Below, piece after piece: positions 1-58,691 of a stretch of DNA of 64,000 nt; positions within the stretch are counted from its first letter, which is position 1, and the number at the start of each line of letters is the position of its first letter. Under the pieces are notes generated by a model. The model had not been told where the DNA came from and ran no database searches. It saw only the letters and a program-made list of their open reading frames with translations. The position numbers were made by a program, and so were the translations under genes. This DNA is from Escherichia coli (GTDB lineage: Bacteria > Pseudomonadota > Gammaproteobacteria > Enterobacterales > Enterobacteriaceae): NCBI RefSeq assembly GCF_003334335.1, contig NZ_QOWQ01000002.1. One strand, 5' to 3'.

Positions 1-589
<589 letters not shown>

Positions 590-607
590 TCTCGATTGAT
601 ATCGAAC

Positions 608-630
608 AAAGGGCCTGCGGGCCCTTTTTT
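608..630 (+). terminator. rho-independent terminator of ompC
   Basis: aaagggcc-tgcg-ggccc stem-loop followed by TTTTTT (625-630), 19 nt after ompC stop. Confidence 0.8.
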
Positions 631-700
631 CATTGTTTTCAGCGTACAAACTCAGTTTTTTGGTGTACTCTTGCGACCGTTCGCATGAGGATAATCACGT

Positions 701-1756
701 ATGGAAATAAGCTTTACCCGCGTGGCACTGCTGGCTGCCGCGCTCTTCTTTGTTGGTTGCGATCAAAAACCACAACCCGCCAAAACCCACGCTACTGAAG
801 TTACCGTTCTTGAAGGCAAAACTATGGGTACCTTCTGGCGTGCCAGCATCCCGGGCATTGACGCCAAACGCAGCGCCGAACTTAAAGAAAAGATTCAGAC
901 CCAACTGGACGCCGACGATCAGCTGCTTTCGACCTATAAAAAAGATTCCGCGCTGATGCGCTTTAACGACTCGCAAAGTTTATCGCCGTGGCCGGTAAGT
1001 GAAGCGATGGCCGATATCGTCACCACCTCGCTGCGCATTGGCGCGAAGACCGATGGCGCGATGGATATAACCGTCGGGCCGCTGGTGAATCTGTGGGGCT
1101 TTGGCCCGGAACAACAGCCGGTTCAAATTCCGAGCCAGGAACAGATCGATGCGATGAAAGCCAAAACCGGCTTACAGCACCTGACGGTCATCAATCAGTC
1201 GCATCAGCAATATCTGCAAAAAGACCTGCCGGATTTATATGTCGATCTCTCCACCGTCGGCGAAGGCTATGCGGCCGATCATTTGGCACGCTTGATGGAG
1301 CAGGAAGGGATTTCCCGCTATCTGGTGTCGGTGGGCGGCGCGCTGAACAGCCGTGGTATGAACGGTGAAGGCCTGCCGTGGCGGGTAGCGATTCAAAAAC
1401 CAACCGATAAAGAAAACGCGGTTCAGGCTGTGGTGGATATCAACGGTCATGGGATTAGCACCTCTGGCAGCTACCGTAACTATTACGAACTGGACGGCAA
1501 ACGTCTTTCCCATGTTATCGATCCGCAAACCGGGCGTCCCATCGAACACAATCTGGTATCCGTGACGGTGATTGCTCCGACGGCGCTGGAAGCCGATGCC
1601 TGGGATACTGGCTTGATGGTACTCGGGCCGGAGAAAGCTAAAGAGGTTGTTCGCCGGGAAGGGCTGGCGGTTTATATGATCACCAAAGAAGGCGATAGCT
1701 TTAAAACCTGGATGTCACCACAGTTTAAAAGCTTCCTTGTCAGCGAAAAAAATTAA
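701..1756 (+). CDS. apbE: FAD:protein FMN transferase (lipoprotein ApbE)
   Basis: 351-aa ORF MEISFTRVALLAAALFFVGCDQ... with lipobox; matches E. coli ApbE length and sequence as I recall it. Confidence 0.93.
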   Translation: MEISFTRVALLAAALFFVGCDQKPQPAKTHATEVTVLEGKTMGTFWRASIPGIDAKRSAELKEKIQTQLDADDQLLSTYKKDSALMRFNDSQSLSPWPVSEAMADIVTTSLRIGAKTDGAMDITVGPLVNLWGFGPEQQPVQIPSQEQIDAMKAKTGLQHLTVINQSHQQYLQKDLPDLYVDLSTVGEGYAADHLARLMEQEGISRYLVSVGGALNSRGMNGEGLPWRVAIQKPTDKENAVQAVVDINGHGISTSGSYRNYYELDGKRLSHVIDPQTGRPIEHNLVSVTVIAPTALEADAWDTGLMVLGPEKAKEVVRREGLAVYMITKEGDSFKTWMSPQFKSFLVSEKN

Positions 1757-1829
1757 AGCGCAAGATTGTTGGTTTTTGCGTGATGGTGACCGGGCAGCCT
1801 AAAGGCTATCCTTAACCAGGGAGCTGATT

Positions 1830-2894
1830 ATGAAAAAAGCCACATGCTTAACTGACGATCAACGCTGGCAATCTGTCTTAGCCCGCGACCCGAATGCCGA
1901 CGGCGAATTCGTTTTCGCCGTGCGTACCACAGGCATCTTTTGCCGTCCGTCTTGCCGCGCCAGACATGCTTTGCGGGAAAACGTCTCCTTCTACGCAAAT
2001 GCCAGCGAGGCACTCGCCGCTGGCTTTCGCCCCTGCAAACGTTGTCAGCCAGAAAAAGCCAATGCCCAGCAACATCGGTTGGATAAAATCACCCACGCGT
2101 GTCGACTGCTGGAACAGGAAACGCCTGTAACGCTGGAAGCCTTAGCCGACCAGGTGGCGATGAGTCCATTTCATCTACATCGGTTGTTTAAAGCGACTAC
2201 CGGAATGACGCCTAAAGCCTGGCAACAGGCCTGGCGCGCTCGCCGTTTGCGCGAATCGCTGGCGAAAGGGGAGAGCGTGACGACGTCTATTCTTAACGCC
2301 GGATTCCCCGACAGCAGCAGTTACTATCGCAAAGCTGACGAAACGCTGGGCATGACGGCTAAACAATTCCGTCACGGTGGCGAAAATCTGGCGGTGCGTT
2401 ACGCGCTGGCTGATTGTGAGCTGGGTCGTTGCCTGGTGGCAGAAAGCGAGCGGGGGATTTGCGCGATATTGCTGGGCGATGATGACGCGACACTAATCAG
2501 CGAGTTGCAGCAGATGTTTCCCGCTGCCGACAACGCGCCTGCCGATCTGATGTTTCAGCAACATGTGCGTGAAGTGATCGCCAGCCTCAATCAACGCGAT
2601 ACGCCGCTGACGTTACCGCTGGACATTCGCGGCACTGCTTTTCAGCAACAAGTCTGGCAGGCACTGCGCACGATACCTTGCGGTGAAACCGTCAGTTATC
2701 AGCAACTGGCTAACGCCATCGGCAAACCGAAAGCGGTACGGGCCGTTGCCAGCGCCTGTGCCGCCAACAAGCTGGCTATCATAATACCCTGTCATCGGGT
2801 GGTCCGTGGTGATGGCACACTTTCCGGTTACCGCTGGGGCGTGTCGCGTAAAGCGCAACTGCTGCGCCGCGAAGCTGAAAATGAGGAGAGGTAA
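1830..2894 (+). CDS. ada: bifunctional transcriptional regulator / O6-methylguanine-DNA methyltransferase Ada
   Basis: 354-aa ORF; N-terminal Cys cluster (CRPSCRARH...CKRC), AraC-type HTH, C-terminal PCHRV active site motif. Confidence 0.95.
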   Translation: MKKATCLTDDQRWQSVLARDPNADGEFVFAVRTTGIFCRPSCRARHALRENVSFYANASEALAAGFRPCKRCQPEKANAQQHRLDKITHACRLLEQETPVTLEALADQVAMSPFHLHRLFKATTGMTPKAWQQAWRARRLRESLAKGESVTTSILNAGFPDSSSYYRKADETLGMTAKQFRHGGENLAVRYALADCELGRCLVAESERGICAILLGDDDATLISELQQMFPAADNAPADLMFQQHVREVIASLNQRDTPLTLPLDIRGTAFQQQVWQALRTIPCGETVSYQQLANAIGKPKAVRAVASACAANKLAIIIPCHRVVRGDGTLSGYRWGVSRKAQLLRREAENEER

Positions 2895-3544
2895 TGTTGG
2901 ATCTGTTTGCCGATGCTGAACCGTGGCAAGAGCCACTGGCGGCTGGTGCGGTAATTTTACGGCGTTTTGCTTTTAACGCTGCGGAGCAACTGATCCGCGA
3001 TATTAATGACGTTGCCAGCCAGTCGCCGTTTCGCCAGATGGTCACCCCCGGGGGATATACCATGTCGGTGGCGATGACCAACTGTGGGCATCTGGGCTGG
3101 ACGACCCATCGGCAAGGTTATCTCTATTCGCCCATTGATCCGCAAACAAATAAACCGTGGCCCGCCATGCCACAGAGTTTTCATAATTTATGTCAACGTG
3201 CGGCTACGGCGGCGGGCTATCCAGATTTCCAGCCAGATGCTTGTCTTATCAACCGCTACGCTCCTGGCGCGAAACTGTCGCTGCATCAGGATAAAGACGA
3301 ACCGGATCTGCGCGCGCCAATTGTTTCTGTTTCTCTGGGCTTACCCGCGATTTTTCAATTTGGCGGCCTGAAACGAAATGATCCGCTCAAACGTTTGTTG
3401 TTGGAACATGGCGATGTGGTGGTATGGGGCGGTGAATCGCGGCTGTTTTATCACGGTATTCAACCGTTGAAAGCGGGGTTTCATCCACTCACCATCGACT
3501 GCCGCTACAACCTGACATTCCGTCAGGCAGGTAAAAAAGAATAA
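2894..3544 (+). CDS. alkB: alpha-ketoglutarate/Fe(II)-dependent DNA dioxygenase AlkB
   Basis: 216-aa ORF MLDLFADAEPWQEPLAAGAVILRRFA...; start overlaps ada stop (TAATG), classic ada-alkB operon. Confidence 0.95.
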   Translation: MLDLFADAEPWQEPLAAGAVILRRFAFNAAEQLIRDINDVASQSPFRQMVTPGGYTMSVAMTNCGHLGWTTHRQGYLYSPIDPQTNKPWPAMPQSFHNLCQRAATAAGYPDFQPDACLINRYAPGAKLSLHQDKDEPDLRAPIVSVSLGLPAIFQFGGLKRNDPLKRLLLEHGDVVVWGGESRLFYHGIQPLKAGFHPLTIDCRYNLTFRQAGKKE

Positions 3545-5468: not shown

Positions 5469-7127
<1,659 letters not shown>

Positions 7128-19726: not shown

Positions 19727-20280
19727 AGCGCAAAGTATTGTTAATTCCGTTGATTATCTTCCTGGCGATTGCCGCGGCGCTGCTGTGGCAGCTGGCGCGT
19801 AATGCCGAAGGGGATGATCCGACCAATCTGGAATCGGCGCTCATTGGCAAGCCTGTGCCGAAGTTTCGTCTCGAATCACTGGACAATCCGGGGCAGTTTT
19901 ATCAGGCGGATGTGCTGGCTCAGGGCAAACCAGTACTGCTTAACGTCTGGGCGACCTGGTGTCCGACCTGCCGTGCGGAACATCAATATCTGAATCAGCT
20001 TTCTGCGCAGGGCATCCGCGTGGTCGGCATGAACTATAAAGACGATCGCCAGAAGGCAATCAGCTGGCTGAAAGAGCTGGGCAATCCTTACGCGCTAAGC
20101 CTGTTTGATGGCGATGGCATGTTAGGGCTGGATCTCGGTGTCTATGGCGCGCCAGAAACGTTTCTTATTGACGGCAACGGCATCATTCGCTATCGCCATG
20201 CGGGCGATCTGAATCCTCGCGTCTGGGAAGAAGAGATCAAGCCGCTGTGGGAGAAATACAGTAAGGAGGCCGCACAATGA
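19723..20280 (+). CDS. ccmG: thiol:disulfide interchange protein CcmG/DsbE
   Basis: 185-aa ORF with thioredoxin WCPTC motif. Confidence 0.95.
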   Translation: MKRKVLLIPLIIFLAIAAALLWQLARNAEGDDPTNLESALIGKPVPKFRLESLDNPGQFYQADVLAQGKPVLLNVWATWCPTCRAEHQYLNQLSAQGIRVVGMNYKDDRQKAISWLKELGNPYALSLFDGDGMLGLDLGVYGAPETFLIDGNGIIRYRHAGDLNPRVWEEEIKPLWEKYSKEAAQ

Positions 20281-21329
20281 GGTTTTTATTGGGCGTGCTG
20301 ATGCTGATGATCTCCGGCTCAGCGCTGGCGACCATCGATGTGTTGCAGTTTAAAGATGAAGCACAGGAACAACAGTTCCGTCAGCTCACTGAAGAACTGC
20401 GCTGCCCGAAATGCCAGAACAACAGCATTGCCGATTCCAACTCGATGATTGCCACCGACCTGCGTCAGAAAGTGTATGAACTGATGCAGGAAGGTAAAAG
20501 TAAAAAAGAGATTGTCGATTATATGGTGGCGCGTTACGGCAACTTCGTCACTTACGATCCGCCGTTAACGCCGCTGACCGTGCTGCTGTGGGTGCTGCCA
20601 GTAGTGGCTATTGGCATTGGCGGTTGGGTCATATACGCCCGCTCGCGGCGTCGGGTACGCGTGGTGCCGGAAGCGTTTCCTGAACAAAGCGTGCCGGAAG
20701 GTAAGCGTGCCGGATATGTTGTTTATCTGCCGGGTATTGTGGTGGCGTTAATTGTGGCTGGCGTCAGCTACTACCAGACTGGCAATTATCAGCAGGTGAA
20801 AATCTGGCAGCAGGCCACGGCACAGGCTCCGGCGTTGCTGGACAGGGCGCTGGATCCGAAAGCCGATCCGCTCAACGAAGAAGAGATGTCGCGTCTTGCG
20901 CTGGGGATGCGTACTCAACTGCAAAAAAATCCGGGAGATATAGAAGGCTGGATTATGTTGGGCCGCGTTGGCATGGCGCTGGGTAACGCCAGTATCGCCA
21001 CCGATGCATACGCCACTGCGTATCGCCTCGATCCGAAAAACAGTGATGCTGCACTGGGATACGCTGAAGCGTTGACTCGTTCATCTGATCCCAACGACAA
21101 CCGCCTCGGCGGTGAACTGCTACGTCAGCTGGTGAGAACGGACCATAGCAATATCCGTGTGCTAAGCATGTATGCGTTTAATGCCTTTGAGCAGCAGCGA
21201 TTTGGCGAAGCCGTTGCCGCGTGGGAGATGATGTTGAAACTCTTACCTGCCAACGATACTCGCCGTGCGGTGATTGAACGTAGTATCGCGCAGGCGATGC
21301 AACATTTGTCGCCGCAGGAGAGTAAATAA
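20277..21329 (+). CDS. ccmH: cytochrome c-type biogenesis protein CcmH
   Basis: 350-aa ORF with LRCPKCQN motif and C-terminal TPR-like region. Confidence 0.93.
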   Translation: MRFLLGVLMLMISGSALATIDVLQFKDEAQEQQFRQLTEELRCPKCQNNSIADSNSMIATDLRQKVYELMQEGKSKKEIVDYMVARYGNFVTYDPPLTPLTVLLWVLPVVAIGIGGWVIYARSRRRVRVVPEAFPEQSVPEGKRAGYVVYLPGIVVALIVAGVSYYQTGNYQQVKIWQQATAQAPALLDRALDPKADPLNEEEMSRLALGMRTQLQKNPGDIEGWIMLGRVGMALGNASIATDAYATAYRLDPKNSDAALGYAEALTRSSDPNDNRLGGELLRQLVRTDHSNIRVLSMYAFNAFEQQRFGEAVAAWEMMLKLLPANDTRRAVIERSIAQAMQHLSPQESK

Positions 21330-21388
21330 AAAGAGGCCCGATGGTGATGCCATCGGGCTAGACTGTTGACAAAGTGCGCTTAGTTTAT

Positions 21389-21486
21389 GCCGGATGCGGC
21401 GTGAACGCCTTATCCGGCCTACAAAATTGTGTAAATTCAATAAATTGATCGATCCACGTAGGCCTGATAAGCGTAGCGCATCAGGC
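21389..21486. repeat. BIME: two REP palindromes in ccmH-narP intergenic region
   Basis: gccggatgcggcgtgaacgccttatccggc (21389-21418) and gtaggcctgataagcgtagcgcatcaggc (21458-21486). Confidence 0.85.
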
Positions 21487-21510
21487 AGTTTTGCGTTTGT
21501 CATAAATCTC

Positions 21511-21541
21511 AGCCCGATGATAAATCCATCGGGCTATTTTT
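21511..21541. terminator. hairpin plus T-run, likely bidirectional terminator for ccm operon and narP
   Basis: agcccgatg-ataaatc-catcgggct followed by ATTTTTATT on + strand; T-run overlaps narP stop codon. Confidence 0.6.
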
Positions 21542-22187
21542 ATTGTGCCCCGCGTTGTTGCAGGAACAGAATGGTGGCCGCCACGCGTGAGCGGACATTG
21601 AGTTTACGCAGCAGATTGCGAATATGTACTTTTACTGTCTGCTCGGAAATATTCAACACCGAGGCAATCTGTTTATTTGACAGCCCCTGTGCCAGCTCGT
21701 GCAGAACATCCAGCTCGCGCTCCGTCAGCACGCTGAAGGGATCTTCTTCCGCGCCAAACATTTCACGTTCACGTAAGTACTGATTGACGCGTTCGCTAAA
21801 GACTTTGCTGCCTTTCGCTCCGGCACGAATCGCTTCCAGCAATACTTCCGGGTCGCTGTCTTTCAACAGATAACCGTCTGCGCCTGCGTCTATCAGCGCA
21901 AAGACATCGCTGGAGGCATCGGATACGGTCAGGATAATAATTTGCGCGGTAACGCCATCCCTGCGCAAGGCATTGAGAGTATCCAGGCCACTCATACCTT
22001 TCATATTGAGATCCAGCAAGATCACGTCGATATCCAGTCTATTCGCCAGATCGATAGCGCTCGCGCCGTCGCCCGCTTCGGCGACCACTTCAAAGCCAGG
22101 ATCAAGCTCCAGTAACTGACGAACACCGCGTCGCATAAGTGGATGATCATCCACAATCATCACCTGAAAAGGCGTTGCTTCAGGCAT
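21540..22187 (-). CDS. narP: nitrate/nitrite response regulator NarP
   Basis: Track ORF 21540..22217; I use the ATG at 22187 (MPEATPFQVMIVDDHPLMRRG..., 215 aa) with AGGAG SD; receiver domain plus LuxR-type HTH. Confidence 0.92.
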   Translation of the reverse strand: MPEATPFQVMIVDDHPLMRRGVRQLLELDPGFEVVAEAGDGASAIDLANRLDIDVILLDLNMKGMSGLDTLNALRRDGVTAQIIILTVSDASSDVFALIDAGADGYLLKDSDPEVLLEAIRAGAKGSKVFSERVNQYLREREMFGAEEDPFSVLTERELDVLHELAQGLSNKQIASVLNISEQTVKVHIRNLLRKLNVRSRVAATILFLQQRGAQ

Positions 22188-22506
22188 AGTAGTCTCCTGA
22201 GGTTTTATTAGAATCATTATGTTTGAGCGTAGCGTTGGTAACGCTACCAGGCGCGTGAATGTTACCCCATTTTATGTATGGACATGTAGTGAAAACTACA
22301 ACCTTGTCGTTCGCTTTGGCATCATTTTCATTATAAAGACGGAATTTTGCATCAGCTTCTCATCAAGAAAAACAACTAAAAAATCAATCACAATACTTGT
22401 GCATTTCTTTAAACAGTTTTTAAAAACTGACTCCGGGTATGGAGCTATGGGTATTTTCTGTACCCAATGCTTTTAACAGCAATTAATTTCATAGGATGAA
22501 AGCTCA

Positions 22507-52191: not shown

Positions 52192-53133
52192 ATGCGCGAA
52201 AAGGATTATGTCGTAATTATAGGTTCGGCGAATATTGATGTCGCCGGATATTCACATGAATCATTAAATTATGCGGATTCAAATCCAGGTAAAATAAAAT
52301 TTACGCCTGGTGGAGTAGGGCGCAATATTGCACAAAACCTGGCGTTGCTGGGTAACAAAGCCTGGCTACTGAGCGCCGTAGGCAGTGATTTTTATGGTCA
52401 ATCGCTGCTAACGCAAACCAATCAATCTGGCGTTTATGTCGATAAATGCCTGATTGTGCCGGGAGAAAATACGTCGAGTTATTTATCATTACTCGATAAT
52501 ACCGGTGAAATGCTGGTTGCTATAAATGACATGAATATTAGCAACGCTATTACAGCTGAATATCTCGCACAGCACGGTGAATTTATTCAGAGGGCAAAGG
52601 TCATTGTCGCGGACTGTAATATCAGTGAAGAGGCACTGGCATGGATTCTGGATAATGCCGCCAACGTACCCGTATTTGTCGATCCGGTTTCGGCATGGAA
52701 ATGTGTCAAAGTGCGCGACCGTCTAAATCAGATCCACACTCTCAAGCCAAACCGCCTTGAAGCGGAAACCCTGAGTGGGATTGCGCTGTCAGGGCGTGAA
52801 GATGTGGCAAAAGTTGCTGCCTGGTTCCATCAACATGGCCTGAACCGACTGGTATTGAGCATGGGCGGCGACGGCGTTTATTACAGCGATATCAGCGGTG
52901 AAAGTGGCTGGTCTGCGCCGATCAAAACCAATGTTATTAATGTTACCGGAGCGGGCGATGCCATGATGGCGGGACTTGCTTCGTGTTGGGTAGACGGAAT
53001 GCCGTTTGCCGAATCTGTTCGTTTCGCACAGGGATGTTCGTCAATGGCGCTCTCCTGTGAATACACCAATAACCCCGATTTATCGATTGCCAACGTTATA
53101 TCGTTAGTGGAGAACGCAGAATGTCTGAATTAA
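52192..53133 (+). CDS. psuK: pseudouridine kinase
   Basis: 313-aa PfkB-family ORF MREKDYVVIIGSANIDVAG...GAGDAMMAG. Confidence 0.92.
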   Translation: MREKDYVVIIGSANIDVAGYSHESLNYADSNPGKIKFTPGGVGRNIAQNLALLGNKAWLLSAVGSDFYGQSLLTQTNQSGVYVDKCLIVPGENTSSYLSLLDNTGEMLVAINDMNISNAITAEYLAQHGEFIQRAKVIVADCNISEEALAWILDNAANVPVFVDPVSAWKCVKVRDRLNQIHTLKPNRLEAETLSGIALSGREDVAKVAAWFHQHGLNRLVLSMGGDGVYYSDISGESGWSAPIKTNVINVTGAGDAMMAGLASCWVDGMPFAESVRFAQGCSSMALSCEYTNNPDLSIANVISLVENAECLN

Positions 53134-55402: not shown

Positions 55403-55416
55403 TGCTCGATTTGTAG

Positions 55417-55449
55417 ACCGGATAAAACGTATTAAGCGTTGCATCCGGC
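55417..55449. repeat. REP element downstream of psuT
   Basis: gaccggataaaacgtattaagcgttgcatccggc palindrome. Confidence 0.75.
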
Positions 55450-58600: not shown

Positions 58601-58691
58601 GCCTGATGCGCAAGCTTATCAGGCCTACATTTACTTGCTGAAATTGCCTGATTTGTAGGCCGGATAAGACGCGTTAAGCGTCGCATCCGGC
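58601..58691. repeat. BIME: two REP palindromes downstream of nupX
   Basis: gcctgatgcgcaagcttatcaggcctac (58601-58628) and gtaggccggataagacgcgttaagcgtcgcatccggc (58655-58691). Confidence 0.85.

Follow-up and report, generated by a model that had tools for sequence, protein, structure and literature searches.

Why should the short spacer between two convergent genes hold nearly the same hairpin twice, once on either side of a repetitive element? The question arises in the 64-kb stretch of Escherichia coli K-12-like DNA analysed here (the window), where ccmH (+ strand) and narP (- strand) converge on a 210-bp spacer that contains a bacterial interspersed mosaic element of type 1 (BIME-1). The explanation considered probable as a whole is that the two genes shared an ancestral bidirectional terminator, that the BIME-1 entered beside its stem-loop and duplicated it, that the two terminators thereby became crossed, and that deletions later removed the element again in many lineages.

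Two copies of one stem-loop

The original prediction described two near-identical hairpins with a common stem, and these are present at 21336-21358 and 21511-21535. The hairpins and the runs beside them are as follows (positions are those of the window; a strand is given where one applies):

21328-21335: A-run AAAAAGAG upstream of hairpin 1, read on the - strand as the U-run CUCUUUUU (sequence, terminator scan, Term-seq)
21336-21359: hairpin 1, left copy of the duplicated stem-loop, GCCCGATGG TGATG CCATCGGGC T, the stem-loop proper being 21336-21358 (fold, terminator scan, RNA 3' ends)
21511-21535: hairpin 2, right copy, A GCCCGATG ATAAATC CATCGGGC T, with arms AGCCCGATG and CATCGGGCT (fold, terminator scan)
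21536-21544: T-run ATTTTTATT after hairpin 2, running into the narP stop codon (sequence, terminator scan)

Compared as 25-nt direct repeats, the hairpins are 84% identical (21/25), start 176 bp apart and have a 9-bp stem in common; none of the four differences falls outside the loop and the top pair of the stem. The folds of both are stable, at -15.9 to -20.5 kcal/mol with z-scores of about -5 to -6, and the pattern GCCCGATG-N7-CATCGGGC, with up to two mismatches allowed, occurs at these two sites only in the window, where 0.03 would be expected by chance. Both hairpins look like functional, G+C-rich terminator stems, as they should if their likeness arose by chance or by convergent selection for two separate terminators. 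However, none of 100 shuffles yielded two matches of the shared stem pattern, the differences are confined to the loop and the top pair, and a short allele described below equals the long allele minus exactly 176 bp. This origin of the likeness is thus refuted, or at best extremely improbable. In Rfam, no structured RNA family accounts for the hairpins, the only matches being the sub-threshold, REP-derived naRNA4 and ES036.

The element between the hairpins

Judged by its sequence, the segment between the hairpins is an ordinary, complete BIME-1. Such elements consist of two repetitive extragenic palindromes (REPs), REP-Y and REP-Z1, separated by an L linker that binds IHF (PMC3333891, PMC1187871). 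The two REP palindromes that had been noticed between the hairpins correspond to these units, and the parts of the element are:

21360-21510: complete BIME-1, 151 bp, comprising the left end AGACTGTTGACAAAGTGCGC, REP-Y, the L linker, REP-Z1 and the right end GCGTTTGTCATAAATCTC (end-to-end alignment with other copies)
21389-21422, + strand: REP-Y palindromic unit GCCGGATGCGGCGTGAACGCCTTATCCGGCCTAC (alignment; sub-threshold Rfam naRNA4)
21423-21457: L linker with the conserved core AATTCAATAAATTG, the published IHF-binding region of BIME-1, recognised here by sequence only (conserved across copies; Rfam ES036)
21458-21486, - strand: REP-Z1 palindromic unit, inverted relative to REP-Y and reading GTAGGCCTGATAAGCGTAGCGCATCAGGC as + strand (alignment)
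21360-21535: 176-bp unit, made up of the BIME-1 and one hairpin copy, missing from the short allele (breakpoint ambiguous within the common CCATCGGGCTA)

Three other BIME-1 copies, of which one lies downstream of mngB, one between fepA and entD and one downstream of msrA, align with the segment over its full length; the common element begins with AGAyTGTTGACAAAG, ends with GTTTGTCATCAGTCT(C) and corresponds to 21360-21510. The ends of the element so defined abut both hairpin copies exactly, and the ccmH-narP hairpins are not part of BIME-1 elsewhere; the 176 bp therefore comprise the BIME-1 together with a single hairpin copy. The left flank motif (21357-21392) belongs to a dispersed repeat of E. 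coli genomes: the median is 7 places per genome, and the K-12-like genomes among the matches listed have 13-15. The Rfam scores over 21383-21465 were 38.3 bits for naRNA4 (gathering threshold 59.5) and 35.6 bits for ES036 (gathering threshold 37.6), both being families derived from REP or BIME sequences. Inverted REP-Y and REP-Z1, end motifs shared with other copies, a unit of 149-151 bp (at 14 loci, see below) and an extragenic position between two stop codons all identify the element as BIME-1. It has the same parts in the same order as the published BIME-1 (RIP/RIB) elements, aligns over its full length, and is extragenic and polymorphic between strains, so that the element itself shows no difference from them. 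What distinguishes the present locus from the BIME-1 literature is the bracketing by a duplicated stem-loop derived from the target.

The spacer is palindromic on a larger scale as well. The left and right halves of 21325-21544 form an imperfect inverted repeat of each other, and the spacer (227 nt) folds as a single RNA strand into one long hairpin (-93 to -98 kcal/mol, z about -9).

Alleles with and without the element

Presence/absence polymorphism of BIME-1 between strains has been published (PMC1187871, citing Bachellier 1997). At ccmH-narP, the long allele occurs in 1505 of 5426 complete E. coli genomes. Among the remaining genomes, all 28 sampled span 305-306 bp instead of 481 bp, i.e., 176 bp less, and the four short alleles that were fetched and aligned (YJ4, O157:H7, ST131 and GTEN_97) read AAAAAGAG-GCCCGATGGTGATGCCATCGGGC-TATTTTTATT, with one hairpin in a 34-bp spacer. 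Comparison with genomes devoid of the REP pair, the check that had been proposed for a duplicated stem, thus gave one hairpin and not two (28 by span, 4 by alignment). In these short alleles the single hairpin stands between the A-run and the T-run, the arrangement of a bidirectional terminator.

The long allele is not uniform. A second, diverged E. coli form (88COLEC, 95-3192, ESDR8) has a degenerate hairpin 1 (...GGTGAyTCCATCAGGCC), in which G-U pairing is kept only in the narP sense, and also five internal substitutions. In a test of strand asymmetry, this second form favoured the narP sense (-19 to -20 against about -16 kcal/mol, some 3-4 apart), while the long allele of strain E69, an Escherichia discussed below, favoured the opposite one. 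Each kind of long allele has close short partners when 800 nt of flanking coding sequence are compared: a K-12-like long allele and the YJ4 short allele differ at 1 position, 95-3192 (long) and O157:H7 (short) at 4, and A34 (long) and GTEN_97 (short) at 5, against 22 differences between the K-12 and O157 backgrounds. Similarly, a single-nucleotide polymorphism 10 bp to the left (GAGG or GTGG) is found with long and short alleles alike. Since long and short alleles occur on at least three common flank haplotypes, the BIME-free state in E. coli is probably for the most part secondary, the product of recurrent deletion between the hairpin repeats and not that of a never-occupied site.

The opposite order of events, in which the short allele is original in E. 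coli and the long one was gained by horizontal transfer or recombination from other Escherichia, would agree with the 72% of E. coli genomes that are short, with the short state of the sampled B2 (ST131) and E (O157:H7) genomes, and with the fact that 1362 of 1472 long junctions are of the K-12 type at ≥99% identity. It is nevertheless unlikely. The two diverged E. coli long alleles sit on their own flank haplotypes and have near-identical short partners (1-5 against 22 differences per 800 nt), the left polymorphism occurs with both allele types, flanks of a donor type were not seen, and three further Escherichia lineages have the long allele, its divergence being proportional to that of its flanks.

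Age of the insertion and ancestral state

Outside E. coli, where the locus was retrieved using CcmH, the long allele was found in E. albertii, in strain E69 (at most 92.6% identical at this locus to any RefSeq E. coli) and in strain SCPM-O-B-8794. The inserts of these non-coli alleles are 87-89% identical to that of the window, tracking the flanking genes (87-95%). In these Escherichia species the loops of the two hairpins differ in the same way, hairpin 1 having GGTGAyGCC and hairpin 2 GrTAAATyC, so the two copies had already diverged in a common ancestor. By this comparison the insertion is old, at the level of the genus Escherichia, and precedes the separation of E. coli from E. albertii. 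The short allele of E. whittamii has a chimeric loop, GGTTAATCC, its left side being like hairpin 1 and its right side like hairpin 2, which would be the expected product of an independent crossover between the copies. Most simply, these alleles would reflect a single ancient insertion, after which the 176-bp unit was lost repeatedly.

The state before insertion is suggested by Salmonella enterica diarizonae, whose short spacer holds a single stem-loop like hairpin 1 (GGCCCGGTGG...CCATCGGGC). With respect to polarity, the original prediction is supported in that the BIME appears to have entered beside an ancestral terminator, but not in the polarity that it implies within E. coli, where most BIME-free alleles are probably deletions. 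In Citrobacter and Salmonella the ccmH-narP spacers have a single REP, a REP pair or none, differing in nearly every species; S. arizonae has two ccmH loci, of which one only adjoins narP.

Precise loss of this kind is known from other systems. Inverted repeats flanked by direct repeats of about 25 bp excise precisely and frequently in E. coli (PMC5576700). The long-to-short change at ccmH-narP is like this palindrome-stimulated deletion (Collins 1981-82; DIRex, PMC5576700) in that the loss is precise and leaves one repeat copy, the difference being that the present locus is a natural one. In Pseudomonas fluorescens, a REP doublet has been reported to excise so that one palindrome remains between inverted flanks, a-palindrome-a' (PMC3337134).

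Hairpin duplication at other BIME-1 loci

A metagenome scan with an L-linker pattern returned 120 contigs, in which 59 instances with both BIME-1 end motifs represent 14 distinct loci. The boundaries of each element were anchored on the end motifs, and the 40 nt to the left of the element were aligned to the 40 nt to the right. The element measures 149-151 bp at the 14 loci. At nine of them, the left and right flanks match with scores of 10-19, corresponding to a duplicated stem-loop of 17-27 nt that abuts the element; scores between left and right flanks of different loci (n = 182 pairs) had a mean of 5.9, a 99th percentile of 10 and a maximum of 12. The scores were 19 for tsx-yajD, 16 for ysgA-metE and for locus L076, 15 for ccmH-narP and for locus L069, 11 for the locus downstream of lpd and for locus L131, and 10 for the locus downstream of mngB. 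The repeats lie within 0-2 nt of the element on both sides in 8 of the 9 loci, the left copy at L131 being 7 nt away. Every repeat is a stem-loop, or a former one where a copy has decayed, and its sequence is specific to the locus; there is usually an A-rich run ahead of the left copy and a T-run behind the right one. As with a target-site duplication, direct repeats stand at both ends of the element and a single copy in the empty site (ccmH-narP and other loci). Their length is not fixed, however, but follows the size of the local hairpin (17-27 nt).

Two of these loci have been compared with BIME-free sequences. The empty tsx-yajD allele holds a single hairpin, GAGAATGCCGGATTCCATATCCGGCATTTTTT. 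In E. coli strain D217-5 (L188:160-400), the tsx-yajD BIME-1 has lost about 40 bp, comprising the right end motif and the hairpin copy on that side, and the other listed tsx-yajD genomes with 90-92% query coverage resemble D217-5; flank hairpins and element ends can thus decay or be deleted asymmetrically. At ysgA-metE, no full-length match to the BIME-filled form was found in the 5426 E. coli genomes, the matches listed spanning about 320 bp, and MG1655-pvir, the one sequence fetched, contains a single hairpin, CCGGGTGGTATTACCACCCGG. The form with the BIME-1 and both hairpin copies is on an E. coli-like metagenome contig; a contig that encodes a 96%-identical YsgA has a spacer identical to that of MG1655. 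Salmonella and Citrobacter are BIME-free at ysgA-metE, with one stem-loop of unrelated sequence, and these outgroups mark the filled, duplicated state as derived. On the evidence of the aligned sequences, ysgA-metE is an independent, polarised case of insertion with hairpin duplication. The proposal that a BIME settled beside an ancestral terminator and duplicated its stem is supported, then, by the one-hairpin empty alleles, by the abutting BIME-1 ends, by the eight other loci and by ysgA-metE, and hairpin duplication appears to be general to BIME-1 rather than specific to one locus. At L069 (- orientation), the right end of the BIME-1 and the right hairpin lie within a larger palindrome, CATCATCGGGGC...GCCCCGATGATG (6540-6600), so that this junction is more complex than elsewhere.

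The locus-specific hairpins also bear on whether the ccmH-narP pair could be decayed REP-type palindromes, i.e., the outer pair of an older REP cluster in which the BIME-1 merely lies. The spacer is a REP hot spot in Salmonella and Citrobacter; Citrobacter has a canonical REP next to narP with the same GCCCGAT/ATCGGGC stem, and the BIME-1 downstream of lpd (L067:1595-1744) has a REP with this stem at the Z1 position. Yet both ccmH-narP hairpins are devoid of a GTAG/CTAC head and of a loop of REP length, by which a REP would be recognised, and their stem is present only twice in the window. Moreover, the eight other BIME-1 loci are bracketed by unrelated, locus-specific hairpins that match the hairpin of the empty allele where this was examined. 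A REP origin of the hairpins is thus quite improbable, and duplication of a terminator stem-loop is the preferred reading.

Transcript ends and terminator function

Which of the two hairpins serves which gene can be read from their runs and, for narP, from mapped RNA ends. The scan for intrinsic terminators (a G+C-rich stem-loop plus a U-run) passes hairpin 1 on the - strand and hairpin 2 on the + strand. Hairpin 1 had been described as having no T-run. This holds for the + strand but not for the narP strand, where the AAAAA at 21328-21332 that precedes the hairpin gives a U-run, the narP-sense strand reading CTCTTTTTAT / CUCUUUUUAU after the stem. The T-run after hairpin 2 does overlap the narP stop codon, as predicted (21537-21541 against 21540-21542). 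Because it lies on the ccm strand, it would serve ccm and not narP.

Transcript 3' ends were placed by converting coordinates (MG1655 position = 2312687 - window position). A Term-seq end of Adams et al. (2021, PMC7815308), present in at least two of their condition tables, lies at MG1655 2291359 (+) and terminates in ...CCATCGGGCCTCTTTTT / ...TAGCCCGATGGCATCACCATCGGGCCTCTTTTT. It corresponds to window position 21328 on the narP strand, 8 nt after hairpin 1, and was classed by Adams et al. as antisense to ccmH. Wild-type 3' ends that are lost in an exoribonuclease mutant (probably of RNase II) were reported at 2291356 and 2291180 (Liu et al., 2023, PMC10667835). The first is 5 nt after hairpin 1 in the narP sense, with a proportion of 0.39, and the second is a minor end 4 nt after hairpin 2 in the same sense (0.08). 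The 3'-end mapping suggested as a check thus finds a hairpin in use. Hairpin 1 is the main end point of the narP-sense RNA, some 212 nt beyond the narP stop codon, which implies read-through of hairpin 2 and of the BIME. By symmetry, hairpin 2 and its T-run are the predicted ccm terminator, which would end the transcript inside the narP stop codon.

These assignments reverse one part of the original prediction, namely that the BIME creates a bidirectional terminator. The BIME-free allele is the compact bidirectional one, fitting known bidirectional intrinsic terminators in its A-run, strong hairpin, T-run, 34-bp spacer and convergent genes. In the long allele, by contrast, each hairpin keeps one run only and neither has the sequence of a bidirectional terminator: the insertion split the terminator into two one-directional halves, the runs are separated, the terminators crossed and the 3' untranslated regions (UTRs) would overlap by about 210 nt.

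A proposed history and its mechanism

In the history considered probable above, the original spacer between ccmH and narP would have measured 34 bp and held one bidirectional intrinsic terminator for both genes, a G+C-rich stem-loop of 9-11 bp with an A-run before it and a T-run after it. The BIME-1, 151 bp long, would then have entered at the foot of the stem-loop, leaving the whole 24-25 bp stem-loop on both sides, a duplication like that of a target site but with its length set by the hairpin. Because the left copy retained the A-run and the right copy the T-run, the working terminator of each gene would now be the far hairpin: narP transcripts pass hairpin 2 and the BIME and stop at hairpin 1 and its U-run, as Term-seq shows, and ccm transcripts would pass hairpin 1 and the BIME and stop at hairpin 2 and its U-run within the narP stop codon. 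The two mRNAs would then have complementary 3' UTRs of about 210 nt that contain REP stem-loops. In most E. coli lineages, and independently in E. whittamii, a deletion between the hairpin copies may have restored the compact terminator; these later losses would be of the palindrome-stimulated kind.

How the hairpin came to be duplicated is a more tentative matter. If the hairpin or cruciform is extruded, staggered nicks at its opposite feet, one per strand, and subsequent fill-in could produce the duplication. One enzyme that might make the nicks is the REP-recognising Y1 transposase (RAYT/TnpA-REP), acting on a REP-like terminator hairpin; RAYT may act differently on double-stranded or cruciform targets, or another activity may take part. 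Resolution of a cruciform by a Holliday-junction resolvase was considered on paper and rejected, as each resolved end would hold only half of the palindrome. A wider idea, that BIME-1 (REPIN) integration is aimed at intrinsic-terminator stem-loops and duplicates the entire hairpin (about 17-27 bp, defined by structure), is put forward as a possibility somewhat short of even.

The locus can be compared with two kinds of mobile element. With REPINs (RAYT/TnpA-REP) it shares the inverted REP doublet that folds as one long hairpin and the long vertical persistence, and its change from long to short resembles the P. fluorescens excision that leaves a single palindrome (PMC3337134). However, REPINs and IS200/IS605 elements insert without direct repeats, whereas repeats of 17-27 nt abut the present element at 9 of 14 loci. 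With miniature inverted-repeat transposable elements (MITEs) and insertion sequences that make target-site duplications it shares flanking direct repeats and the single copy in the empty site; here, the repeat varies in length and equals the target stem-loop, and there are no known DDE terminal inverted repeats and no associated transposase.

Several observations weigh against this history and its generality. IS200/IS605-type Y1 transposition, the accepted model for REP/BIME mobility, produces no target duplication (PMC3333891, PMC2817692), so that hairpin duplication needs an extra, hypothetical step. The flank repeat was not seen at 5 of the 14 BIME-1 loci, and the 14 are a selection from metagenome contigs by one exact linker pattern rather than a census. 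The single-hairpin state before insertion at ccmH-narP is suggested by one Salmonella subspecies, other Salmonella and Citrobacter having different REP arrangements there. Given that the long junctions are mostly of one K-12-like type, the alleles could have spread by recombination rather than by many independent deletions. No ccm-sense 3' end is present in the 3'-end tables examined, whose conditions are assumed to lack ccm expression. The flank repeats may also have been noted already in an older paper (Bachellier et al., 1997).

Locus and window

The genes on either side of the spacer are:

20277-21329, + strand: ccmH, last gene of the ccm operon, stop codon TAA at 21327-21329 (open reading frame list; named ccmH in matching RefSeq genomes)
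21540-22217, - strand: narP, convergent with ccmH, stop codon at 21540-21542 (648 nt as a RefSeq coding sequence; the open reading frame list uses an earlier ATG)

The promoter scan gave no promoter-like site in the ccmH-narP spacer, and the MG1655 RefSeq annotation has no repeat feature there. Farther along, the autotransporter gene yejO (863-aa open reading frame, 22507-25098) is intact, whereas IS5K splits it in MG1655; the window thus comes from a K-12-like strain and not from MG1655 itself. Two further REP units lie on the - strand at 55413-55449 and 58655-58691, and a match to TGTCAAAGTGCGC at 52704-52716 resembles the BIME-1 left end motif. A REP consensus with a fixed 5-nt loop found the two other REPs of the window but missed those of the spacer, because REP-Y has a shorter loop here.

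Implications

The movement of REPs and BIMEs has been an open question since the 1980s, with no insertion signature so far to constrain the mechanism, and one review describes REPs as being without MITE signatures. No description of hairpin-length duplications flanking BIME-1 or REPINs was found in the literature searched, older work (Bachellier et al., 1997) lying outside that search; an earlier description of the flank duplication in the older French literature would leave no more than an ordinary, well-documented BIME-1 polymorphism.

For E. coli itself, the two alleles set K-12, with REP-containing 3' UTRs that would overlap by about 210 nt, apart from most pathogenic strains, with a 34-bp shared terminator. 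This difference could affect mRNA stability or the interference between convergent transcripts for narP, the nitrate-response regulator.

For the repeat family, the duplication would give a simple reason for two known features of BIME-1, its extragenic position at 3' ends and a presence/absence polymorphism that exceeds that of any other repeat in E. coli. Integration aimed at terminator hairpins, if true, would involve cleavage at both feet of an extruded hairpin or cruciform with fill-in, unlike the duplication-free 'peel and paste' of the IS200/IS605 relatives, and would explain both the position of BIME-1 at gene ends and its frequent, precise loss. The ccmH-narP locus is itself ordinary, but it possibly exposes an insertion signature for this repeat family: a duplication as long as the hairpin, if it recurs at most BIME-1 sites, would serve as one and would make the insertion step testable.

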